NCBI GenBank assembly: GCA_016188545.1
Contig: JACPHO010000001.1
Span: 355,324 to 419,323 of the forward strand
Source of the DNA: Candidatus Shapirobacteria bacterium
GTDB taxonomy: Bacteria > Patescibacteriota > Microgenomatia > UBA12405
Direction: 5' to 3'
DNA length: 64,000 bases
Below the pieces are notes generated by a model. It saw only the letters and a program-made list of their open reading frames with translations. It did no database searches and had not been told where the DNA came from. This document shows, piece after piece, positions 12,204 to 64,000 of the stretch. The first letter of the stretch is position 1. Each line of letters opens with the position of its first letter. The position numbers and the translations under genes are program-made.

Positions 12204-12253
12204 ATTGTTTTCGTCTTTGTAGACTCATCAGTCCCGCAATTCGGGATAACAAT
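12204..12253 (-). ncRNA. hammerhead ribozyme motif, type III (HHR-3)
   Basis: Minus-strand RNA, 5' to 3': AUUGUU-A-UCCCG[AAUUG]CGGGA-CUGAUGA-GUCU[ACAA]AGAC-GAAA-ACAAU. Conserved core nucleotides CUGAUGA, GAAA, U16.1 and H17 are all present. Stems I and II are closed and stem III is open. Confidence 0.7.
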
Positions 12254-12277
12254 TTCCTCTTGGCACAACCAACGCTT

Positions 12278-12297
12278 GGGTCCCCTTGAGGGGACCC
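12278..12297 (-). other. perfect 8-bp GC hairpin between the stop codon and HHR-3 (module hairpin)
   Basis: GGGTCCCC-TTGA-GGGGACCC. No U-run follows on the minus strand, so it is not a terminator. It lies 40 nt 3' of the stop of gene 12338..12976. Confidence 0.6.
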
Positions 12298-12337
12298 ACT
12301 CGTCGTTTTTTTTGTTGTGCCTTGAGGGCGATAGGAA

Positions 12338-12976: not shown

Positions 12977-13238
12977 GGCTTCTCCTTTTGAAGTCGAACA
13001 AAATTGTGGGAAATACTTGGACTCTTTATTAGAAAACAACCGAGTTGTTTTTACTAATTAAAAAGCCCAAATACTTGCTTAAATCGCCATTCCTATCCTA
13101 ATTATTAAAGTGCATCTGAACAGAAAATACATAGCTAATATGTAAACCTATTCGTCCATATTTTAACATAACTAGACATAAAAAACAATGTTATAAGATA
13201 TATAGAATATTTTCTTAATCGCGAGCGTAAAAATAATT

Positions 13239-13260: not shown

Positions 13261-13332
13261 CAAAACCGTCGGCTCGAACTACTTTTTATTGGATAAAACC
13301 ATACTCCCAAAATATCAAAATGACGGATTCTT

Positions 13333-13520
13333 GGCGCTGGCCAATCCTGTGCGCCTGTCCGCCTCTGGCGGAGGCGTGGCCTGCGCCATGGCAAAAATCA
13401 TGCGATTTGCAAAAACTGTTGAGGCTGTACGTACAAATTCGAACGTATTTTAAGAAATTATAACAGTCGCCCCGCTCGTCCCGTCGCCGGTCGGGACGAA
13501 AAACGCGGGGCTCGATTGAA
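13333..13520 (+). repeat. mosaic GC-rich structured repeat, copy B (P3 long hairpin + CGATTTGCAAAAACTGTT linker + P1 + nested GC hairpin variant 2)
   Basis: P3 is TGGCGCTGGCCAATCCTGTGCGCCTGTCCGCCTCTGGCGGAGGCGTGGCCTGCGCCA at 13333-13390. P1 is at 13423-13451. The hairpin GCCCCGC[TCGTCCCG..CGGGACGA]AAAACGCGGGGC is at 13466-13520. Confidence 0.7.
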
Positions 13521-16280: not shown

Positions 16281-16322
16281 GTACAATGCCGACAATTCGT
16301 GAATGTCATGATTTTTTGATGT

Positions 16323-16381
16323 GGCGCTGGCCAATTCTGTGCGCCTGTCCGCCTATGGCGGAGGCGTGGCCTGCGCCACAT
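16323..16381 (+). repeat. P3 long GC hairpin element, second copy, abutting tRNA-Gln
   Basis: TGGCGCTGGCCAATTCTGTGCGCCTGTCCGCCTATGGCGGAGGCGTGGCCTGCGCCA. It differs from the 13333-13390 copy at only two positions, both in predicted unpaired regions. The same CGATTTGCAAAAACTGTT linker follows. Confidence 0.7.
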
Positions 16382-16407
16382 CAAAATCTTTCGATTTGCA
16401 AAAACTG

Positions 16408-16478
16408 TTACCCCGCATGGATTCGAACCACAATCACGAAGTTCAGAGCTTCGTGTCCTACCATTAGACGACGGGGTA
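16408..16478 (-). tRNA. tRNA-Gln (anticodon CUG)
   Basis: Reverse complement: TACCCCG-TC-GTCTAATGGTAGGAC-A-CGAAG-CTCTGAA-CTTCG-TGAT-TGTGG-TTCGAAT-CCATG-CGGGGTA-A. The cloverleaf has a 7-bp acceptor stem and a TTCGAAT T-loop. Confidence 0.85.
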
Positions 16479-16854: not shown

Positions 16855-17455
16855 TATCTTCTTCCCCGTGTCCAGGTAGAACTATAACCTCTCCCGGTAA
16901 TTTAATAAGCTCTCTTAAACTTTTTCGTAAATCAGACATCGAGGAATAGTTATGATCAGTACTTCCTATCCCACCCTCCGCAAACAGGGTATCCCCGCTA
17001 AACAATAATTTACCACTGGTATCATAAAAACAAACCCCACCAGGCGTATGACCGGGGGTTTTCAGTACCTTCAGCTTCTCCTCCCCAAGTAATATGTTTT
17101 TTGCGTTACTCAGGTCAACATCTGTCTCAGCTATGTCTAGCGTGTCTACTCTATGTTTCAAAAAATGTTCTGCTGTTTCTTTTTGTCGCTTAAGTAAAAA
17201 CATGTCGAGTTTGCTTACTCCGATAGGAATGTTGTACATCAATTTTAAGTCCATAGCTGCCAACAAGTGGTCAAAGTGCCCGTGTGTCGCCAGTATCATT
17301 AGTAGCTTCAATTGGAGCCTCTGAACCTCATCGCTAATCTCAGTCGCAGCATCAGCCGGGTCAATAATTACTCCTTCTTTTGTTTCATCATCCCAGACTA
17401 TATAACAGTTGGTTTCTAGTTCACCCAAGACCAACTTTTCGTATTTCAACATCAT
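16817..17455 (-). CDS. MBL-fold metallo-hydrolase (glyoxalase II-like)
   Basis: The HxHxDH motif ATHGHFDH is present, with downstream His/Asp ligands. Confidence 0.75.
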   Translation of the reverse strand: MMLKYEKLVLGELETNCYIVWDDETKEGVIIDPADAATEISDEVQRLQLKLLMILATHGHFDHLLAAMDLKLMYNIPIGVSKLDMFLLKRQKETAEHFLKHRVDTLDIAETDVDLSNAKNILLGEEKLKVLKTPGHTPGGVCFYDTSGKLLFSGDTLFAEGGIGSTDHNYSSMSDLRKSLRELIKLPGEVIVLPGHGEEDTILNSSRRLGSL

Positions 17456-25520: not shown

Positions 25521-25898
25521 TTACTTTTTACTTTTTACTTTCGAATTTTCTATCCTAAGTATCTTTTTTATCACAACAAAAACCAGTAGTGCAATAATCA
25601 AAAAGTTTAAAGTAGATCCCATCATATTACCGATCTTAAATTCCGATCCAGCTATTGTGAATACAATTTCTCTCCATGAACCGGTAGGAGATATAATCCC
25701 TATTATTGGCATAATCATATCATTGGCAATCGATGTAGTTAGATCCTTTACTGCCCCGGCAATCACCACCCCGATAGCCAGTTCCAATACATTATAGTTT
25801 TTCAAAAAATCCAAAAACTCATTTTTACTTTCACTCGCTTTCTCGATAATAATTTTAGTTCTTCCTGCTTTAACTTTTACAACTTTTGTTTTTTCCAT
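25521..25898 (-). CDS. mscL: large-conductance mechanosensitive channel MscL
   Basis: Motifs FLDFLKNYNVLELAIGVVIAGAV, DMIMPIIG and a C-terminal hydrophobic helix are present. Confidence 0.75.
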   Translation of the reverse strand: MEKTKVVKVKAGRTKIIIEKASESKNEFLDFLKNYNVLELAIGVVIAGAVKDLTTSIANDMIMPIIGIISPTGSWREIVFTIAGSEFKIGNMMGSTLNFLIIALLVFVVIKKILRIENSKVKSKK

Positions 25899-26231
25899 GA
25901 CAAATTATACAACCTGTTCGGTAGGTTAGTTTACCCTGAGCGAATGAAACGAGTCGAATGGGTCATTGCGCTTTGCCCGCCGAAGCGAAGCGTAGGTGGG
26001 AGCGAAGGAATGAGCGTGGCAATCTTCTGTAATTCTGCCAGTGGGATTAACTTTTCCCACTATTCCAAATTCTGTTTACTTTTGAATTTATTTTTTTTGC
26101 CTTATTCTCGTTTCTATCCTATTCCAGTTACTAGTTACTAATTACCAGTGACATCTCACACCTTATGTTTCTTGTTTTTATTTTTAACTTTTTACTTTTA
26201 ACCTTTTACTTTTGTACTTAGTTTTTTTGTT

Positions 26232-26291
26232 AATGATTTCGTCCTCCGAATCGAAGGACTCATCAGGCCCGATACCTATCGGACAATCATT
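26232..26291 (-). ncRNA. hammerhead ribozyme motif, type III (HHR-1)
   Basis: Minus-strand RNA: AAUGAU-U-GUCCGAU[AGGU]AUCGGGC-CUGAUGA-GUCCUUCG[AUU]CGGAGGAC-GAAA-UCAUU. All invariant core nucleotides are present. Stem III is a 6-bp AAUGAU/AUCAUU duplex. Confidence 0.75.
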
Positions 26292-26308
26292 CACTAAGCA
26301 CACCGCGG

Positions 26309-26333
26309 CTGGCAGGGGATAAACCCCTGCCAG
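26309..26333 (-). other. perfect 10-bp GC hairpin between the stop codon and HHR-1 (module hairpin)
   Basis: CTGGCAGGGG-ATAAA-CCCCTGCCAG. It lies 30 nt 3' of the stop at 26363 and is not followed by a U-run. Confidence 0.6.
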
Positions 26334-26362
26334 TAGCATGTGCGCTCAGCGCTTTGGATAGG

Positions 26363-27085
26363 TTATTGGTAAGGAGTTGCGCAGAATACCGCATTTTCGT
26401 GATCAGTATGTTCATCTCTGTCAAACTCGTAGTAGTTATCCCACTTCTGCGAGGCGACATTAATATATGGACTTTCAATCGTTATTACTGGCATTGGGAT
26501 TGCCATTTCGTTTGAATAACCAACTTGGTCATCGAACAGCATCCATCTGGCGTCGTTTACGTATAAAAGGCTTCCTTTGGCTTCACGCGTGTTCGTGTCA
26601 GTATGCATAACAATACTATTATCGTAGCAAGTCAAGCTTCGTTGATTTGTTTCAGGAGCTGTTCTAGGCAAAGCATCAAAGTAGGCATAAACCTCAGTCA
26701 CGACTGTTTCTTTGTGCTCGGCAAACGCCCAGATCGTCATCCTATACAAGCCTGACTTTCCAGTCGTCCATTCAAAAACATCGAAATCCCCCGGTTGAAT
26801 CTCAAAATGGCCATAGTCTTCATCCATCCACATTACACTTCTCCAGGTAATTCTCTGGGGGTTGACGTTTTCTTCAGATTTATCAATTCCATCTCCTTCA
26901 GGTGCAAAGTCGATTTTTGCATAATAAAGAAGGGGGTCCTCGGATGAATTTGGATGGATAGTTGCTTTGCAAGTTTTGCGGTCACAGATTATCTTTGCAT
27001 TTGCAGGCATTGCTTTCCCACATGCTGAAAGAAACAACCCAATTGTTGCAAAGAACAATACAGCTAACAGTTTTCTTGTTTTCAT
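26363..27085 (-). CDS. secreted hypothetical lipoprotein
   Basis: The signal peptide MKTRKLLAVLFFATIGLFLSACG has a lipobox-like LSAC. No known domain. Confidence 0.45.
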   Translation of the reverse strand: MKTRKLLAVLFFATIGLFLSACGKAMPANAKIICDRKTCKATIHPNSSEDPLLYYAKIDFAPEGDGIDKSEENVNPQRITWRSVMWMDEDYGHFEIQPGDFDVFEWTTGKSGLYRMTIWAFAEHKETVVTEVYAYFDALPRTAPETNQRSLTCYDNSIVMHTDTNTREAKGSLLYVNDARWMLFDDQVGYSNEMAIPMPVITIESPYINVASQKWDNYYEFDRDEHTDHENAVFCATPYQ

Positions 27086-27138
27086 TTCAATCTCCTCTGT
27101 TTAGATAGAATATTTCAAACGACCTTTTAGGGTCATCA

Positions 27139-27441
27139 TCAGGCACGCCTGGAATTACGAATTACCGCTATGATCAAAAATCCCCCAAGCAAAATCAACC
27201 CCAGTGATACAAGGAAAATCCCTTCAAACCCCCAGGTAATTTCCCATAACATTCGTTCAATTGAGACCTTGGTTATTGGAAAAAACTGCCAAATTAGCCA
27301 AATTTTTTCGCGACAATTTATCGCCGCGTTGCCATTGGGGCAATTTGGCCACAACCCCATTGAGGTTACCCACAACAGGGAACCGGCAACCATCGAGTAA
27401 AGCCCCGCTAAAATTCCAAAAAAACTTACAAATCTTTTCAT
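27139..27441 (-). CDS. small hypothetical membrane protein
   Basis: The likely start is the ATG at 27441 (MKRFVSFFGILAG), preceded by AAGGAG. It ends in the triple stop TGATGATGA. Confidence 0.4.
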   Translation of the reverse strand: MKRFVSFFGILAGLYSMVAGSLLWVTSMGLWPNCPNGNAAINCREKIWLIWQFFPITKVSIERMLWEITWGFEGIFLVSLGLILLGGFLIIAVIRNSRRA

Positions 27442-27585
27442 CTCACATTCTCCTTTTTGTATATTTTTAGACACACGGTCAATTCCCCTTTTGGGGTAAC
27501 TGACTAGTGTGTCTAAAACTTTTTCCTATCCAAATTTTTAAAGAACTAAACCTACTTCAACACGCAATGTATTGAGTTAGTTGCA

Positions 27586-27646
27586 AATGATTTCGTTCTT
27601 CAAATCAATGAAGAAGCTCATCAGTCCGCCTTGGGCGGAAATCATT
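27586..27646 (-). ncRNA. hammerhead ribozyme motif, type III (HHR-2)
   Basis: Minus-strand RNA: AAUGAU-U-UCCGCC[CAA]GGCGGA-CUGAUGA-G(C)UUCUUC[AUUGAUUU]GAAGAAC-GAAA-UCAUU. The core and stem III match HHR-1. Stems I and II differ but remain paired. Confidence 0.75.
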
Positions 27647-27666
27647 CACGGCATACAATCGCAGGT

Positions 27667-27686
27667 GGGGAGCCAGAAGGCTCCCC
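27667..27686 (-). other. perfect 8-bp GC hairpin between the stop codon and HHR-2 (module hairpin)
   Basis: GGGGAGCC-AGAA-GGCTCCCC, 23 nt 3' of the stop at 27709. Confidence 0.6.
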
Positions 27687-27708
27687 AAATCCTGGATTGC
27701 GCCGCGCT

Positions 27709-28200
27709 TTACGGAGTTTCGATAATGGAGTTGACACAGTATAGTGTTTCATCTTGATAGAAACGGCAGTCCGCCAATTTTTCAACCTTGTATCCTGTAA
27801 ATTCCGATATCCAACCGGATGTATTATCGTCTTGCGTTGCAACTTCCCGCATCCAAACTTCTTCTCCATACAGAAGATAAACAATATGAACTCCGTCTGG
27901 ACTCCAGAAGAATTCAGTCACAGAGGTGACTATTAGGACCAAACCACCTGGAATTGTAGGATTGACTTGCAACACCGAAACCCCTGTTTCAAGGTTTTTA
28001 AGTATAAATGCTTCCTGTCCTTTAGTCGAAAACTTACTTTCCCCATGTTGATAAATCAACTTTGGTGCTTCGGTGGCTACAGGCATTGCAGTAGGGCTGA
28101 TTGCTGGCCGATGATCGCCATTATTTATGGTCGATGCAAGTAATGCAACTGCGAGACCCAAAACAATGTGCCACCATTTTAAACCTAGTCGAGTTTTCAT
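27709..28200 (-). CDS. secreted hypothetical protein
   Basis: Signal peptide MKTRLGLKWWHIVLGLAVALLAS. No known domain. Confidence 0.45.
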   Translation of the reverse strand: MKTRLGLKWWHIVLGLAVALLASTINNGDHRPAISPTAMPVATEAPKLIYQHGESKFSTKGQEAFILKNLETGVSVLQVNPTIPGGLVLIVTSVTEFFWSPDGVHIVYLLYGEEVWMREVATQDDNTSGWISEFTGYKVEKLADCRFYQDETLYCVNSIIETP

Positions 28201-28279
28201 CTCTTCTCCTTAAATATAATTCCTCTGACAAAAAGCTGTCAGGCCAATTGAACTTCCCGAATCATTTGATTCGATCGTT

Positions 28280-28726
28280 TTAGCGCTCTGATTTTGCTTT
28301 TGGTGTGCAGGTTGGTATGGTTCTTCCAGCAGTTACAACACAAACCTGTGAAGAGGTATCGTAGGTCATTTGACCATAAGCTACCCACTTCGTCGAACCT
28401 GCTACGAACCAAGGTTCAGTCCAACAACTCCAGTCAAGTGTATTGCGATCATTCAATACTGCTATACACAATGATTGACTGTTGTGGTTCTGGTAAACAG
28501 CAGCTTGCATAATCTGCCTACCAGAAAAAGGAGACATCTGAGATGTTCCGTCAATATAGACCCCCTTCGGCTCTTCTGAAAATGGATTTTCGATGTGAAT
28601 ATTTTTTACTGTTTTAATTCCCCATGTTTTTATATCATCATCAAATCCGACCCCAACAGATACTGCAGCCAAAATCATACAAGCACAGACGCCGATCAAA
28701 ATTCCAATAACCAACAGTTTGTTCAT
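28280..28726 (-). CDS. secreted or membrane-anchored hypothetical protein (Cys-rich)
   Basis: N-terminal hydrophobic helix and several Cys residues. No known domain. Confidence 0.4.
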   Translation of the reverse strand: MNKLLVIGILIGVCACMILAAVSVGVGFDDDIKTWGIKTVKNIHIENPFSEEPKGVYIDGTSQMSPFSGRQIMQAAVYQNHNSQSLCIAVLNDRNTLDWSCWTEPWFVAGSTKWVAYGQMTYDTSSQVCVVTAGRTIPTCTPKAKSER

Positions 28727-28968
28727 CTCAACTCTCCTTTGAGTTTCAAATAGTCTTTGGATACACAGTTAACTTCCCCCTTTGGGTGAAATTAATCGGT
28801 GTACCCAAATCTTCTCTACTCCGTAATTTTTTAAAGTGCCAAGTAATCGGCATTACACAGCAATTGTGTAGTTTGATTACTTAGCAAATACTAGCAAAAA
28901 ATAACCCAAATGTCAATATTATGGGCTGTAATTTAAAGTAAAAATTCAAAAGTAAAAAGTAAAATAAC

Positions 28969-29319
28969 TTATGACTTAAGTTTATTTACAATAGAACTTA
29001 AAATTAGGCTTACTTCTTTGGTTTCTTGATATAAATTTGCTGATTTCACCCTTAGCTTTGGCTCAGCCTCAATTAGCATTATTATCCAATATAGGGTTTC
29101 TCGAGCTTCTTTTCTCGCAATACCAACTTTGTGTATAAAATCATTTTTACTTTCTGAATTATTGGCTTCACAATAATTTGCCCCAATACTAGTACCTGCA
29201 CGAATAAATTGACTGATCAGTGGCAAAGTAATCGTATTTTTGGGCACCAACTTTGCGAAACATATGACTTGCTTACCCAAACTTTCCAGTCTCTCAATAA
29301 GATCAAATTTTGTTGCCAC
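28969..29319 (-). CDS. four-helix-bundle protein (23S rRNA intervening-sequence protein family)
   Basis: The pattern IGANYCEA...KEARETLYWI is characteristic of this family. Confidence 0.65.
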   Translation of the reverse strand: MATKFDLIERLESLGKQVICFAKLVPKNTITLPLISQFIRAGTSIGANYCEANNSESKNDFIHKVGIARKEARETLYWIIMLIEAEPKLRVKSANLYQETKEVSLILSSIVNKLKS

Positions 29320-29370
29320 GTATTAATTCTAACAAGTTTAGTTTTTACTTTTTATTTTTTACTTTTGAAT

Positions 29371-30270
29371 TTATGCATTAAAGCTCCTCTCCATCCAATG
29401 TCGGTCTATCTCCACTGTCATTTCCAAAAATACTTTACGTCCAGACATTAGCTCCAATTCCTTTCTGGCGTTAAATCCGATTTCTTTTATTTTTTGCCCG
29501 TTCTTACCGATAATCATTTTCTTGTATCTATCTGCATTAGTGTTGATAACTGCCTTAATATAGATCAATTTTCCCTTATCTTTTACCTCTTTTACTTCAA
29601 CGTTAATGGTATAAGGCAGCTCTTCTCGTAAAAACAAATATGCCTTCTCCCTGATTATCTCTCCGATATACTCACGTGAACCCATTCCCATAAGTAGGCC
29701 TTTCTTTTCAGCCATCACACCCAGCTCGCTGTTTATTTCTTTCTCAGTTTTTTCGGGTAAAAAGTCAAAAATTAGGTTTAAAAGTCCCTTGACATTCTTT
29801 TCTTTTATAGCGCTAATACTGATGACCTTGTCAAATTCTTCCTCCAAGTAGTTATATTCAGCCAAGTGATCCTTGGTCCCAATAGCTTTATCTGTTTTGT
29901 TGTATACCAATATTTTTTTTGAAGGCATTTTACGAACTAATCCAATTACCTTATTCTCTTCTTCAGATTTCTCTCGGGAAATATCGACCAAGCAGACAAT
30001 TACATCCTTCCTGGCTGTTGACTTGGGCGCTTCCAAATTGATGTTCTTTGACATCAAGTCTTCTACTTGGTTAATGATTCCGGGTGTATCAGTAAAAACA
30101 ATCACTCCTTTCTCATTTCGGAACACCACTTGACTACTTTTTCGGGTTGTTTGCGGTAGGGGAGAAGTAATCGCTACCTTTTGGTTCATCAGCGCGTTTA
30201 GTAGAGTTGATTTACCGGTATTTGGTCGACCTACAATCGCGACACGACCAAACTTTAACTTATTTATCAT
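29371..30270 (-). CDS. era: GTPase Era
   Basis: The G1 motif GRPNTGKSTLLNAL and DTPG are present, with a C-terminal KH domain. Confidence 0.9.
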   Translation of the reverse strand: MINKLKFGRVAIVGRPNTGKSTLLNALMNQKVAITSPLPQTTRKSSQVVFRNEKGVIVFTDTPGIINQVEDLMSKNINLEAPKSTARKDVIVCLVDISREKSEEENKVIGLVRKMPSKKILVYNKTDKAIGTKDHLAEYNYLEEEFDKVISISAIKEKNVKGLLNLIFDFLPEKTEKEINSELGVMAEKKGLLMGMGSREYIGEIIREKAYLFLREELPYTINVEVKEVKDKGKLIYIKAVINTNADRYKKMIIGKNGQKIKEIGFNARKELELMSGRKVFLEMTVEIDRHWMERSFNA

Positions 30271-37020: not shown

Positions 37021-37064
37021 AAAAACCCCGCCTTTGGGATTAAATAATTAATCACAAGGACGGG
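37021..37064 (-). terminator. intrinsic terminator-like hairpin plus U-run in the argS leader (attenuator candidate)
   Basis: Minus-strand RNA CCCGUC-[loop with GAUUAA/UUAAUC sub-hairpin]-GGCGGG-G-UUUUU. It lies 16 nt before the argS ATG. Confidence 0.4.
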
Positions 37065-37092
37065 ATTTATCTGCCGGTAGGTAGATTTCTCT

Positions 37093-37104
37093 CGTGGTAC
37101 CACC
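37093..37104 (-). promoter_or_regulatory. T-box-like sequence in the argS leader
   Basis: Minus-strand AAAGGUGGUACCACG compares with the T-box consensus AGGGUGGNACCGCG. The UGGU would pair with a tRNA ACCA 3' end. Confidence 0.3.
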
Positions 37105-37261
37105 TTTATTTTTCTCTTTTGAGTTTGTACGGTTCACTCCGTTTCCGATTTTGCGGAAGACTCCACCTTCGCGACAGGCTTCGTTGTCTTTGGAAATTAT
37201 ATACTATTCATTGTCATCTGGGTAGAATCTAACTAATCTCCACACGAAACACACCTAATAG

Positions 37262-55584: not shown

Positions 55585-55656
55585 TACGGAGGAGGGGAGT
55601 TGAACCCCTATAAAACTGTTTTACAGACAGTTGCATTACCGGCCTGCCCCCTCCGT
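55585..55656 (-). tRNA. tRNA-Tyr (anticodon GUA), short variable arm
   Basis: Reverse complement: ACGGAGG-GG-GCAGGCCGGTAATGCA-ACTGT-CTGTAAA-ACAGT-TTTAT-AGGGG-TTCAACT-CCCCT-CCTCCGT. The 7-bp acceptor stem is perfect. The D-stem is short. Confidence 0.7.
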
Positions 55657-55660
55657 AGAA

Positions 55661-55717
55661 CCAAAAAAGCCCTCGCCTTTGCAAAACCAATAAATGGCTT
55701 CACAAGGGTGAGGGCTT
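55661..55717 (-). terminator. intrinsic terminator on the minus strand, immediately 5' of tRNA-Tyr
   Basis: The 11-bp stem CCGUGAGAAGCCCUCACC...GGCGAGGGCUU (one G-U) is followed by UUUUUUGG on the minus strand. Confidence 0.5.
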
Positions 55718-55957
55718 CTCACGGTACCACCTTGTTTCGTAAATAAAAAAAGCTCCCACAGGAGCTCGATAATTATTTACCTTATTATCGAGTACTTGTT
55801 TACCTCGCCTCTGGCGGACTTGCAGTGATACTCTAGCTCTATTTAGGGAGCTCCCTTACCGATTTTGTCGGTATGCTCAGAGGGTGTATTATGTCCTCCT
55901 TAACGCGTTCCAAACTTAGTCAAGTTTATCACGAGGAAATTTCTTGTCAAGAATATA

Positions 55958-62058: not shown

Positions 62059-64000
62059 ATGCTCTCTTTTCTAAAAAATATCTTTGATGAAGATCGTCGT
62101 CGGATCAGTTCATTTAAGCCAATCATCCAGCAAATCAACAGTTTTGAAGCTGCAATTAAAGAACTCACTGACAAGGAGTTATCCGCAAAAACAGTCTATT
62201 TTAAGGAACAATTGTCAAATGGTAAAAAACTTAATGACATTCTTCCTGAGGCCTATGCTGTGTGCCGCGAAGCTATTAGTCGTACCATCGGTGAACGTGC
62301 CTATGATGTTCAATTAATGGCCGCAATTACTTTACACCAAGGTGCTATTGCTGAGCAGAGAACTGGAGAAGGTAAAACTCACTCAGTTATTTTTCCGGCA
62401 TATCTAAACGCTCTAACTGGGAAAGGAGTCCACGTAGTTACCCCAAATGATTACCTAACCCGTGTTGGTGCAGGTTGGTATCCCCAGGCTTTAAATCTAT
62501 TAGGTATTAGTACTGCTTGCATAGTTCATGAACAATCATTTATTCTAGATCCGACATTCACCGACGCGTCAGAAGACGTAGATGAACGTCTCGCCCATCT
62601 TCGACCTGTCTCACGTACTGAAGCTTATCAAGCTGACATTACCTACGGAACCAACAATGAATTTGGATTTGACTATCTTCGGGATCATATGGTTGGTAGT
62701 CAAACTGAAAAAGTCCAGCGTGACTACCATTATTTTGCCATAGTCGATGAGGTCGACTTTGTCCTTATCGACGAAGCCAGAACTCCTTTGATTATTTCGT
62801 CCCCAAACAATTCTCCAGTCGACAAGTACTACAAATTTGCCCAAATCGCCGATACATTGCAATCATCAGATTATGTCATCGAAGAAAAGTCACGTTCAGC
62901 TTCCTTATCTGAATTTGGCATCCGTAAAGTCGAAAAAATTCTCGGAGTCGGCAACCTTTACGAAGAATCTTTTGAAACTATTCATTTTATTGAAAATGCC
63001 ATTAAAGCTAGAGCAATTTTTCATAAAGATAAAGATTATGTCATCAAAGATGGCGAAATTATAATTGTTGATGAATTTACCGGCCGTCTGATGCCAGGTC
63101 GTCGTTGGTCTGATGGTTTGCATCAGGCAGTCGAAGCCAAAGAAAACGTTACCGTCCAAAAAGAATCCCAAACTTGGGCTACCATAACTTTCCAAAACTT
63201 TTTCCGTCTTTATGAAAAACTCGCCGGGATGACTGGAACCGCCGCTACTGAAGCTGAAGAGTTCAAAAAAATCTACAATCTCGATGTTATTACCATCCCC
63301 ACTTATCGGAATCTGCAACGTCTCGATGGTCACGACTATATTTTCAAAACCCAAAGAGCCAAATACGCTGCCATCGCCGCCACTGTCGAAAAACTACATC
63401 AATCAGGTCAACCAGTATTAATTGGAACCACCTCAATTGAGAAAAATGAAATCATCGCATCCTTGCTCCGTAAGAATGGAATTCCCTTCCAAATGCTCAA
63501 TGCCAAGAATCACCGTTCTGAAGCAGAGATAATTGCCAAGGCGGGTATCAAGGGTGCTGTCACAGTGGCCACCAATATGGCCGGAAGGGGAGTCGATATT
63601 ATTTTGGGTGGACCAAAAGCTACCACCAAAAACTGGCAAGCCGCCCATGACGAAGTCATCTCTCTTGGTGGACTCCATGTAATCGGCACCGAACGACACG
63701 AATCTCGTCGTATCGACAATCAGCTTCGTGGTCGCGCCGGTCGTCAAGGTGATCCTGGTTCATCCCAATTTTATGTGGCCCTCGACGATGATCTCATGAG
63801 AATCTTTGGAGGTGAAAAAATATCGTCCCTCATGACTAGATTCAATATGCCCGATGAAGAAGCCCTAACACATCCACTTGTATCTAGGGTGATCGAACAA
63901 ATCCAAGTAAAGGTCGAGGGCTACAACTTTGATGTTCGCAAGAACATTGTCGAATACGATGATGTCATCAACAAACAGCGTAAAATTATTTATAACCTCA
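62059..64000 (+). CDS. secA: preprotein translocase ATPase SecA (5' partial; continues beyond the window)
   Basis: It begins MLSFLKNIFDEDRRRISSF. Motifs AEQRTGEGKTH, VDEVDFVLIDEARTPLIIS, TGTAATEAEEF and RGRAGRQGDPG are present. It is not in the ORF track because no stop falls in the window. Confidence 0.9.
   Translation, partial: MLSFLKNIFDEDRRRISSFKPIIQQINSFEAAIKELTDKELSAKTVYFKEQLSNGKKLNDILPEAYAVCREAISRTIGERAYDVQLMAAITLHQGAIAEQRTGEGKTHSVIFPAYLNALTGKGVHVVTPNDYLTRVGAGWYPQALNLLGISTACIVHEQSFILDPTFTDASEDVDERLAHLRPVSRTEAYQADITYGTNNEFGFDYLRDHMVGSQTEKVQRDYHYFAIVDEVDFVLIDEARTPLIISSPNNSPVDKYYKFAQIADTLQSSDYVIEEKSRSASLSEFGIRKVEKILGVGNLYEESFETIHFIENAIKARAIFHKDKDYVIKDGEIIIVDEFTGRLMPGRRWSDGLHQAVEAKENVTVQKESQTWATITFQNFFRLYEKLAGMTGTAATEAEEFKKIYNLDVITIPTYRNLQRLDGHDYIFKTQRAKYAAIAATVEKLHQSGQPVLIGTTSIEKNEIIASLLRKNGIPFQMLNAKNHRSEAEIIAKAGIKGAVTVATNMAGRGVDIILGGPKATTKNWQAAHDEVISLGGLHVIGTERHESRRIDNQLRGRAGRQGDPGSSQFYVALDDDLMRIFGGEKISSLMTRFNMPDEEALTHPLVSRVIEQIQVKVEGYNFDVRKNIVEYDDVINKQRKIIYNL

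Follow-up and report, generated by a model that had tools for sequence, protein, structure and literature searches.

What does a self-cleaving RNA do between the small genes of a bacterial chromosome? Hammerhead ribozymes have been catalogued by the thousands in bacteria and phages, where their role is still unclear (PMC3088659), and the searchable literature yielded no report linking them with bacteria of the Candidate Phyla Radiation (CPR). The question is raised here by a stretch of 64,000 nucleotides from a tiny groundwater bacterium of that radiation (also called Patescibacteria), Candidatus Shapirobacteria (contig JACPHO010000001.1, positions 355,324 to 419,323; genes with locus tags HYV64_023xx), which we call the window. 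On its minus strand, at 27586-27646, lies an element of 61 bases, HHR-2, starting 62 nt past the stop codon (27709-27711) of a gene for a protein of 163 amino acids (aa). Two further elements of the kind, HHR-1 and HHR-3, occupy the same strand. That HHR-2 is a genuine type III hammerhead is, from its sequence and that of its relatives, close to certain; what such elements do for the genes around them is the harder part of the question.

The RNA reads AAUGAU-U-UCCGCC[CAA]GGCGGA-CUGAUGA-G(C)UUCUUC[AUUGAUUU]GAAGAAC-GAAA-UCAUU, exactly as the earlier note on this DNA had given it, and matches the minus strand of 27586-27646 base for base. The 5' strand of stem III (27646-27641, U16.1 being 27641) is followed by U17 at 27640, with the predicted cut 3' of this base, between 27640 and 27639. 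Then come stem I (27639-27625; 6 bp and a CAA triloop), the core CUGAUGA (27624-27618), stem II (27617-27595; G10.1-C11.1 and, beyond a bulged C, an unbroken run of six or seven pairs), GAAA (27594-27591, with GAA at 27594-27592) and the 3' strand of the 6-bp stem III (27591-27586). On inspection of the sequence the catalytic core is complete (C3 U4 G5 A6 N7 G8 A9 ... G12 A13 A14). A15.1 (A27591) pairs with U16.1 (U27641), H17 is U27640 and thus not G, and the pairs adjoining the core are present as U27639-A27625 (1.1-2.1) and G27617-C27595 (10.1-11.1). Loops close stems I and II, while both ends lie in the open stem III, which is the type III topology. Core, A15.1-U16.1 pair, non-G position 17, G10.1-C11.1 pair, three helices and the match to an independent model described below all bear out the type III reading that had been proposed from the letters of the window.

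How readily could such an arrangement arise by chance? The combination CUGAUGA-N8-38-GAAA occurs nine times in the window against 2.1 expected. A strict type III descriptor finds HHR-1 and HHR-3 and has no match in 300 dinucleotide-preserving shuffles of the window; it misses HHR-2 because it does not allow the bulged C. The Rfam model RF00008 (Hammerhead_3, clan CL00010) aligns end to end, with 23.4 bits for HHR-2, 26.7 for HHR-1 and 31.4 for HHR-3; for HHR-2 the E value is 0.011 in 401 nt, with model positions 1-54 covered. Far stronger scores come from R2, a covariance model trained on 89 metagenomic hammerheads and on no sequence of the window. Scanned over the window with filters off, it gives 49.4 bits for HHR-3, 46.6 for HHR-2 (E 9e-14) and 44.9 for HHR-1; the next best match in the 64 kb reaches only 12.1 bits, which puts the number of hammerheads of this family in the window at exactly three. 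We also scanned 596 Gb of genome contigs, a collection without the source genome, for the exact stem III pattern of HHR-1 and HHR-2. The two matches, in metagenome-assembled genomes of Desulfobacterales and Clostridia, both lack stems I and II and are chance matches.

The family to which the three belong is large. A metagenome scan with a pattern fixing only UH-UCC...GGA-CUGAUGAG...ACGAAA returned at least 120 loci, and complete type III hammerheads, with stems beyond those required by the pattern, are present in about 75 loci among the matches listed. Several of the listed loci come, judging by contig name, from aquifer or groundwater projects, and 16 of them, as well as the window, carry two or three hammerheads on one strand, 0.4-1.7 kb apart. 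In a model-guided alignment of 94 distinct hammerheads, 94.9% of the stem cells are paired, against 68.7% with shuffled partners and 31-52% with columns slid by one to three; 16 of the 18 pairs have changed on both sides, and the covariation score is 0.588 against 0.145. Among nine distinct hammerheads from related Shapirobacteria islands, 91.3% of the cells are paired and 12 of the 18 pairs have changed on both sides. Both alignments were fitted to the model, which favours pairing, but the slid controls together with the number of pair types make a convincing case. Loss of pairing in further homologues, which the earlier note had named as one observation that would speak against a functional RNA, is seen in neither set. 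The core CUGAUGA and the pair G10.1-C11.1 are each present in 92 of the 94, and at position 17 there are 69 members with C, 18 with U, 7 with A and none with G. An open reading frame (ORF) on the same strand ends within 300 nt upstream of 79 of 93 family members. Loop 1 (CAA) and loop 2 (UUG) of HHR-2 are complementary, and swapped in HHR-3; a Watson-Crick pseudoknot between the two loops is unsupported across the family, complementarity of at least 3 bp being found in 9.7% of members and in 6.5% of partner-shuffled controls.

The neighbours of these metagenomic hammerheads offer a few observations of their own. The flanking proteins are mostly unannotated, the exceptions being glycosyltransferases and an anti-restriction family (phrog_7245) on two contigs, L005 from the IMG/VR viral collection and the TARA scaffold L029, where the hammerhead stands 13-14 nt past the anti-restriction gene; given the viral provenance of L005, at least one phage therefore uses this hammerhead family. 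Positions 2168-2824 of L025, a contig with two hammerheads, are about 70-74% identical in DNA to 62632-63288 of the window, so that at least some of the metagenomic loci come from related CPR organisms. Many loci between L008 and L125 have, 2-6 nt past stem III and just ahead of the ribosome-binding site (RBS) and start of the next gene, the motif (A/U)G(U/A)UCUUU, which AAAA often follows; its copy in the window is at 27535-27546 on the minus strand, 39 nt past HHR-2.

Within the window, HHR-1 (26232-26291, minus strand; predicted cut 26285/26284) can be compared with HHR-2 base by base. As had been claimed, the two do not differ in the flanks GUGAAUGAUU and GAAAUCAUU. The further claim that stems I and II are completely different in sequence and yet paired holds for the pairing; stem II is homologous in HHR-1 and HHR-2, its 3' half and the GAAAUCAUU region being 81% identical over 26 nt (repeat D3). 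Between the two copies, stem II shows both-side changes from C-G to U-A and from G-C to A-U, a change from U.G to U-A, the 1-nt bulge (C) and a 3-nt loop insertion, and stem I shows at least two both-side changes. HHR-1 and HHR-2 are diverged paralogues with compensatory evolution, which is the argument of the earlier note made more precise. HHR-3 (12204-12253, minus strand) lies behind an orphan gene for a lipoprotein-like protein of 233 aa. All three hammerheads are on the coding strand, 62-84 nt past a stop codon.

The position of HHR-1 and HHR-2 is also maintained in related genomes. Read along the minus strand, era (29371..30270) is followed by a gene of the 23S-rRNA-IVP family (28969..29319), the genes for 148 and 163 aa, HHR-2, the genes for 111 and 240 aa, HHR-1, mscL (25521..25898) and an ABC transporter. 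Because the 163-aa protein has no relatives, contigs of related Shapirobacteria were reached through homologues of MscL. A hammerhead found with R2 stands immediately upstream of mscL in L127-L133 (37-42 bits) and in L139 (36.5 bits), with homologous long hairpins in all of them, and HHR-1 is their orthologue. About 1 kb further upstream L127 and L128 have a second hammerhead. The leader that follows it (AAUACAUUGCGU...GUUCUUUAAAAAUUUGGAUAGGAA) and the sequence after HHR-2 are homologous, which makes the second hammerhead the positional counterpart of HHR-2; all three of its stems differ in sequence and are still paired. L140 has a hammerhead past its first orphan gene. No hammerhead was found in the more distant relatives L134 and L135, in which era and mscL are 15 nt apart, or in L136-L138, in which 255 nt without an ORF separate them. 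As era and mscL are adjacent in some relatives, with no genes and hammerheads between them, the units of small genes and hammerhead, which we call cassettes, are insertions into the era-mscL spacer. Their number varies, from none in some genomes to two or more in others, and the genes they carry are for the most part unrelated from one genome to the next.

The spacer as a whole is a hypervariable island in Shapirobacteria (25899-29370 in the window; also in L127, L130, L132 and L134-L140), in which the count of small orphan genes for membrane or secreted proteins runs from none to five or more, with a RhuM-family gene in addition in L140. An extended -10 match (TGTATAAT) stands about 5 nt before the start of mscL in the window (25899-25925, minus strand) and in L127, L128, L130 and L136, which suggests a leaderless mscL mRNA or one with a very short leader; in relatives a canonical terminator precedes this match, and the window appears to have none. 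At the third site, the HHR-3 module and the DNA downstream of it are 89% identical between the window and L099, and the 5' region 80%, while the gene between them has been replaced; the L099 hammerhead differs from HHR-3 by a compensatory change from U-A to C-G in stem II.

Each hammerhead of the window ends a 3' module of constant order, in which the stop codon is followed by a short motif, a hairpin of 60-72 nt and the hammerhead itself. The hairpin of HHR-2 (27647-27706, minus strand) is 60 nt long and irregular, has a GC-rich tip, begins 2 nt past the stop codon and directly abuts stem III (fold z = -8.3). That of HHR-1 (26292-26351, minus strand; 60 nt, z = -8.1) is homologous to the hairpin of L130, and that of HHR-3 (12256-12327, minus strand; 72 nt) is part of an element at 12256-12337 that includes an UUCCUAUCG motif. 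As a class the long hairpins begin 2-11 nt past the stop, end 0-2 nt short of stem III and fold with z of about -8. They have homologues in nine modules, in which the outer stem and the tip helix show both-side pair changes, and in eight of the nine the sense strand is the more stable. This sense-strand bias, together with the presence of G.U pairs, indicates a structure formed at the RNA level. A perfect hairpin of at least 8 bp ending no more than 6 nt from stem III accompanies 28% of the family, against 3.5% of random positions.

Two familiar identities for the long hairpin were considered and rejected. The terminator scan called no T-tract or terminator-like site at 27647-27706 or 26292-26351, where the hairpin passes into AAUGAUU, and without a T-tract an intrinsic terminator is ruled out. 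By eye, the hairpins of HHR-2 and HHR-1 also lack the AAC/GTT core sites (RYYYAAC ... GTTRRRY) of an integron attC site; in other modules CUAAAC/GUUUAG and CACAAC/GUUGUG match these core sites at only six of seven positions, a loose resemblance, and the G.U pairs and greater stability of the sense strand also speak against a site of this kind. A separate G+C-rich long-hairpin element of about 90 nt occurs at 13323-13420 and 16320-16410 (both minus strand) and at 58-170 of L099, with a shared leader CAGUUUUUGCAAAUCG and a shared 21-mer GGCGCAGGCCACGCCUCCGCC. One copy lies directly past a tRNA gene (16408-16478) and folds with z of -8.0; its tip hairpin resembles stem I of HHR-2, with no hammerhead core beside it.

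The genes carried by the cassettes say little by homology. Cassette A (27709-28726, minus strand) consists of the orphan genes for 148 aa (28280..28726) and 163 aa (27709..28200), both products having an N-terminal hydrophobic segment, and cassette B (26363-27474, minus strand) of a membrane-protein gene for 111 aa (27139..27474, likely ATG at 27441) and a lipoprotein-like gene for 240 aa (26363..27085). A search of 5.8 billion proteins gave no homologue of the 163-aa protein, and none of the cassette proteins of the window has a match in Pfam or PHROG, so that a phage origin of the flanking genes is unsupported, no PHROG or Pfam match being significant. A hydrophobic N-terminal segment is common to all cassette proteins, a set of unrelated orphan membrane or secreted proteins. 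Ahead of the cassette A leader, at 28888-28916 (minus strand), stands a sigma-70-like promoter match, TTGACA-17-TAGTAT with TG (10/12, a consensus match only), and L140 has a similarly placed TTGACT-17-TAGTAT. Between HHR-2 and the next gene the promoter scan finds no promoter-like site.

Each leader of the two cassettes also contains a hairpin. That of cassette B (27465-27518, minus strand; inverted repeat I9) has a perfect outer stem of 12 bp and directly precedes the RBS and start codon of the gene for 111 aa, and a similar one in cassette A (28765-28812, minus strand) occupies the corresponding place, close ahead of the RBS of its first gene. Their sequences, GUUUUAGACACAC...GUGUGUCUAAAA and GGGUACAC...GUGUAUCC with an inner CCCC-AAA-GGGG, have similar counterparts in L127 and L128 and no Rfam match; the hairpin may be a cis-regulatory element. 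Elsewhere in the window, T-box leader matches below the gathering threshold (93) stand at 55701-55912 (45.3 bits) and 37053-37193 (25.8 bits), both on the minus strand, the former just downstream, in the direction of that strand, of a tRNA gene at 55585-55656.

How could these parts work together? HHR-2 probably cleaves in vivo. We propose that transcription from the promoter of cassette A yields a multi-gene minus-strand RNA of the island, and that HHR-2 cuts this RNA 3' of U27640. The upstream mRNA, with the genes for 148 and 163 aa, would then end in the long hairpin and a 7-nt tail carrying a 2',3'-cyclic phosphate, and so compact a hairpin end would be a poor substrate for 3' exonucleases and tailing enzymes. 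The downstream mRNA, with the genes for 111 and 240 aa, would have a 5'-hydroxyl at its start and, ahead of the conserved leader, the folded body of the ribozyme. Stem III has only six A/U-rich pairs, and the cleavage products should therefore separate. HHR-1 would act likewise at the end of cassette B, before mscL, so that the island transcript would be resolved into cassette-length mRNAs with defined, protected ends and any following terminators would be removed. On this particular role, 3'-end and inter-cassette mRNA processing, we consider the balance to be even; the explanation as a whole, a real type III hammerhead in a multi-gene RNA that cuts the island transcript into protected cassette mRNAs, we regard as moderately probable.

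Several observations weigh against this explanation. All three hammerheads fall below the RF00008 gathering threshold of 48.5 bits, which reflects the limited reach of the curated model and no missing ribozyme feature. The irregularity of HHR-2 at 10.2/11.2, a bulged C or C.A mismatch, adjoins G10.1-C11.1, and an irregular pair at this place is found in only 7 of the 94 family members, HHR-2 and six others; the bulge could slow cleavage. In nearest-neighbour folding the hammerhead structure of HHR-2 lies 2.7 kcal/mol above an alternative that pairs U4-U7 with the 3' strand of stem III. HHR-3 is followed by a convergent gene and has no co-directional gene downstream. Behind the mscL-proximal hammerhead of the relatives stand a canonical intrinsic terminator and a new promoter, which argues for 3'-end trimming there rather than separation of cistrons, and the terminator hairpin would already protect the 3' end. 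Finally, the benefit of a cyclic-phosphate or 5'-hydroxyl end in CPR bacteria is assumed from general knowledge of RNA decay. The alternative pairing is open to HHR-1 and HHR-2 alike, since in each of them U4-G5-A6-U7 of the core is able to pair with AUCA in the 3' strand of stem III; as modelled, this fold could be a folding trap or a switch.

A different use of the same cuts is suggested by complementary sequences at the two ends of each cassette. The typical leader upstream of the cargo gene has (G/C)UUCUUUAAAAA, a gap of 1-4 nt and GGAUAGGAA, with the complementary UUCCUAUCC right past the stop codon, so that a long-range helix, P1, could form. In cassette A the 5' arm is UUACGGAGU (28818-28826, minus strand), in the 5' leader just past CACUUUAAAAAA, and its perfect complement ACUCCGUAA (27709-27717, minus strand), which overlaps the stop codon, sits where other cassettes have UUCCUAUCC; the helix has 9 bp. 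The cassette B leader (27523-27546, minus strand) consists of GUUCUUUAAAAA and then UUUGGAUAGGAA, with the 5' arm at 27525-27534 and a 10-bp complement, CCUAUCCAAA, at 26353-26362 (minus strand). In the HHR-3 cassette the UUCCUAUCG motif (12329-12337) has its complement, GGAUAGGAA, at 13090-13098, both on the minus strand. In L130, GGAUAGAAA pairs with UUUCUAUCC, 11 bp in all, and L128 has a U.G wobble. P1 is described here from about ten cassettes of one bacterial group, the Shapirobacteria. As a general feature of tandem metagenomic hammerheads it was rejected, the value there being 6.75 against 6.44 and reached by 25 of 300 permutations. The GGATAGGAA/CGATAGGAA pair found at 16963-17229, although exact, is part of a coding gene and due to chance. 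We favour pairing of P1 as RNA because the 9-mer of cassette A differs and a wobble variant exists; arms acting in DNA, as inversion or recombination repeats, are possible and less favoured.

With P1 in place, cuts at HHR-2 and HHR-1 might yield a closed-loop RNA. They would free 1,355 nt (27639 to 26285) whose 5' end is the HHR-2 body with the 3' strand of stem III and whose 3' end is the P1 arm, the hairpin and an identical 5' strand of stem III with a cyclic phosphate. The two ends would be held together by stem III and the 10-bp P1, so that a complete hammerhead re-forms, and ligation, by this hammerhead or by an RtcB-type ligase, could close the circle, much as viroid-like RNAs and retrozymes are closed. 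Such a scheme would explain why HHR-1 and HHR-2 agree exactly in stem III and the bases beside it and diverge in stems I and II, and why stem III is also identical in the two copies of L127 and of L128. It also fits the 5' strands of stem III in hammerheads of one locus being more alike than expected (identity 0.54-0.56 against 0.315, reached in at most 3 of 5000 permutations), and the 9-11-mers in the 5' and 3' untranslated regions that flank every Shapirobacteria cassette in the versions GGAUAGGAA/UUCCUAUCC, GGAUAGAAA/UUUCUAUCC and UUACGGAGU/ACUCCGUAA, besides the U.G variant. Known circular hammerhead RNAs likewise use the type III topology (PMC7761336). Yet the two hammerheads of L139 differ by one compensatory stem III pair (AAUUAU/AUAAUU against AAUGAU/AUCAUU), so that cross-pairing would leave a mismatch, and strict cross-compatibility of stem III in tandem pairs is thereby contradicted. 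Related stem III sequences occur in all island hammerheads of this group, and shared ancestry explains much of the identity. P1 is also present in cassettes with no hammerhead upstream (cassette A, the HHR-3 cassette, L130 and L140), while in the wider set of tandem loci such complementarity is not significant. Perreault et al., who sought circular or spliced products of clustered bacterial hammerheads, found none (PMC3088659). A closed or circular cassette RNA is an unlikely explanation.

It is similarly doubtful that hammerhead, hairpin and inverted 9-mers serve a mobile or exchangeable element, selfish or driven by recombination, instead of host expression. Movement could then proceed through RNA, as in retrozymes, or by exchange or inversion of DNA at the flanking repeats. 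The insertion of cassettes in the era-mscL spacer, with number and cargo varying among close relatives and ORFs mostly unrelated between genomes, is what such an element would leave behind, as are the ORF swapped between conserved flanks in L099 and the modules of L127, near-identical from hairpin to cleavage site and differing beyond. The G+C content of the cassettes is slightly raised (0.41-0.46 against 0.31-0.39 nearby), and many bacterial hammerheads lie near integrases and prophages (PMC3088659). The machinery itself is absent from view, since ORFs, Pfam and PHROG reveal no recombinase, reverse transcriptase or phage gene next to the cassettes. The wholly different 9-mer pair of cassette A is unlike the site of a sequence-specific recombinase, the G.U pairs and sense-strand bias of the hairpin speak for structure at the RNA level, and plain homologous recombination would also permit the conservation of the flanks. 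Both ideas could be combined in one conjecture, in which the hammerheads are the joints of an undescribed RNA-level gene-cassette system of CPR bacteria that releases, by ribozyme cleavage, translatable mRNAs clamped by P1 and stem III into closed loops or circles, possibly also copied and exchanged between genomes; we consider this quite unlikely.

Could HHR-2 be an inactive or crippled copy, with its bulged C and A/U-rich stems, that leaves HHR-1 and HHR-3 as the only working hammerheads? Its Rfam score is the lowest of the three, it is irregular at 10.2/11.2, and its module lacks the UUCCUAUCC motif of the other modules. All core bases and core-adjacent pairs are nevertheless intact, six or seven contiguous stem II pairs lie beyond the bulge, a positional counterpart is kept in L127 and L128, and the irregularity recurs in six other members of the family. 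In minimal hammerheads, moreover, pairs beyond 10.1-11.1 are non-critical. Loss of function in HHR-2 is thus very unlikely. As for the possibility that A/T-rich intergenic DNA resembles the hammerhead consensus by accident, the score under the Rfam gathering threshold and the two chance matches to the stem III-anchored pattern in 596 Gb are outweighed by the empty shuffles, the E value of about 1e-13 from the independent model, the three coding-strand copies in equivalent contexts and the hammerheads kept in synteny by related genomes, which leave this reading a negligible probability and effectively refute it.

The processing of cassette mRNAs by a working HHR-2 is thus the explanation that we retain, and the locus is a clean setting for the study of hammerhead function in bacteria: chromosomal, conserved in position and built as a fixed module in the 3' untranslated region behind variable genes for surface proteins, with relatives that have zero, one or two cassettes as natural controls. 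A large groundwater family of type III hammerheads escapes the present Rfam thresholds, and this matters for the annotation of CPR genomes. Should P1 and the common stem III indeed produce closed-loop or circular mRNAs, bacteria would be seen to express genes in a new way.

How does this module compare with known systems? HHR-2 shares with the RF00008 class the core C3-A9 and G12-A14, the A15.1-U16.1 pair, H17, the G10.1-C11.1 pair, closed stems I and II and a length of about 60 nt, and departs from it in the triloop on a 6-bp stem I, the bulged C past G10.1 and the low score. The long hairpin is similar to terminators and 3' stabilizing hairpins in being a stable G+C-rich stem-loop past the stop codon that would block 3' exonucleases, and unlike terminators it has no U-tract, so that the 3' end would come from self-cleavage. 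Engineered insulators of the RiboJ type, which place a hammerhead and a hairpin between expression units, standardize mRNA ends. HHR-2, by contrast, is natural, and the hairpin that accompanies it comes before the ribozyme, where the preceding mRNA would end, and not after it. In ribozyme-flanked 'Tornado' circles, the 5'-hydroxyl and 2',3'-cyclic-phosphate ends can be joined by RtcB.

Retrozymes and viroid-like circular RNAs (PMC4918200, PMC7761336) are also of type III, with tandem same-strand copies that have stem III in common. Unlike in retrozymes, the RNA between the hammerheads of the window codes for proteins of 111 and 240 aa, the repeats are identical over only about 10 and 26 nt with no long repeats like long terminal repeats, and L139 breaks the perfect cross-compatibility of stem III; circles or reverse transcription are, for the window, hypothetical. 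The nearest precedent is found in the prophage regions of bacteria, where clustered hammerheads flank single genes or short gene blocks and where processing into gene-length mRNAs has been proposed and is unproven (PMC3088659). Those clusters share with the window several same-strand hammerheads, 0.4-1.7 kb apart, that bracket small genes without a known function. The window differs from them in its setting, a CPR chromosome between the housekeeping genes era and mscL with no phage genes in view, and in its parts, as each hammerhead comes with a conserved long hairpin and a complementary 9-mer at the 5' and 3' ends, and a terminator follows in relatives. HHR-2 is, then, an ordinary hammerhead of a known class, and it is the chromosomal hairpin-plus-hammerhead module on orphan-gene cassettes of a CPR bacterium that gives it a new context.

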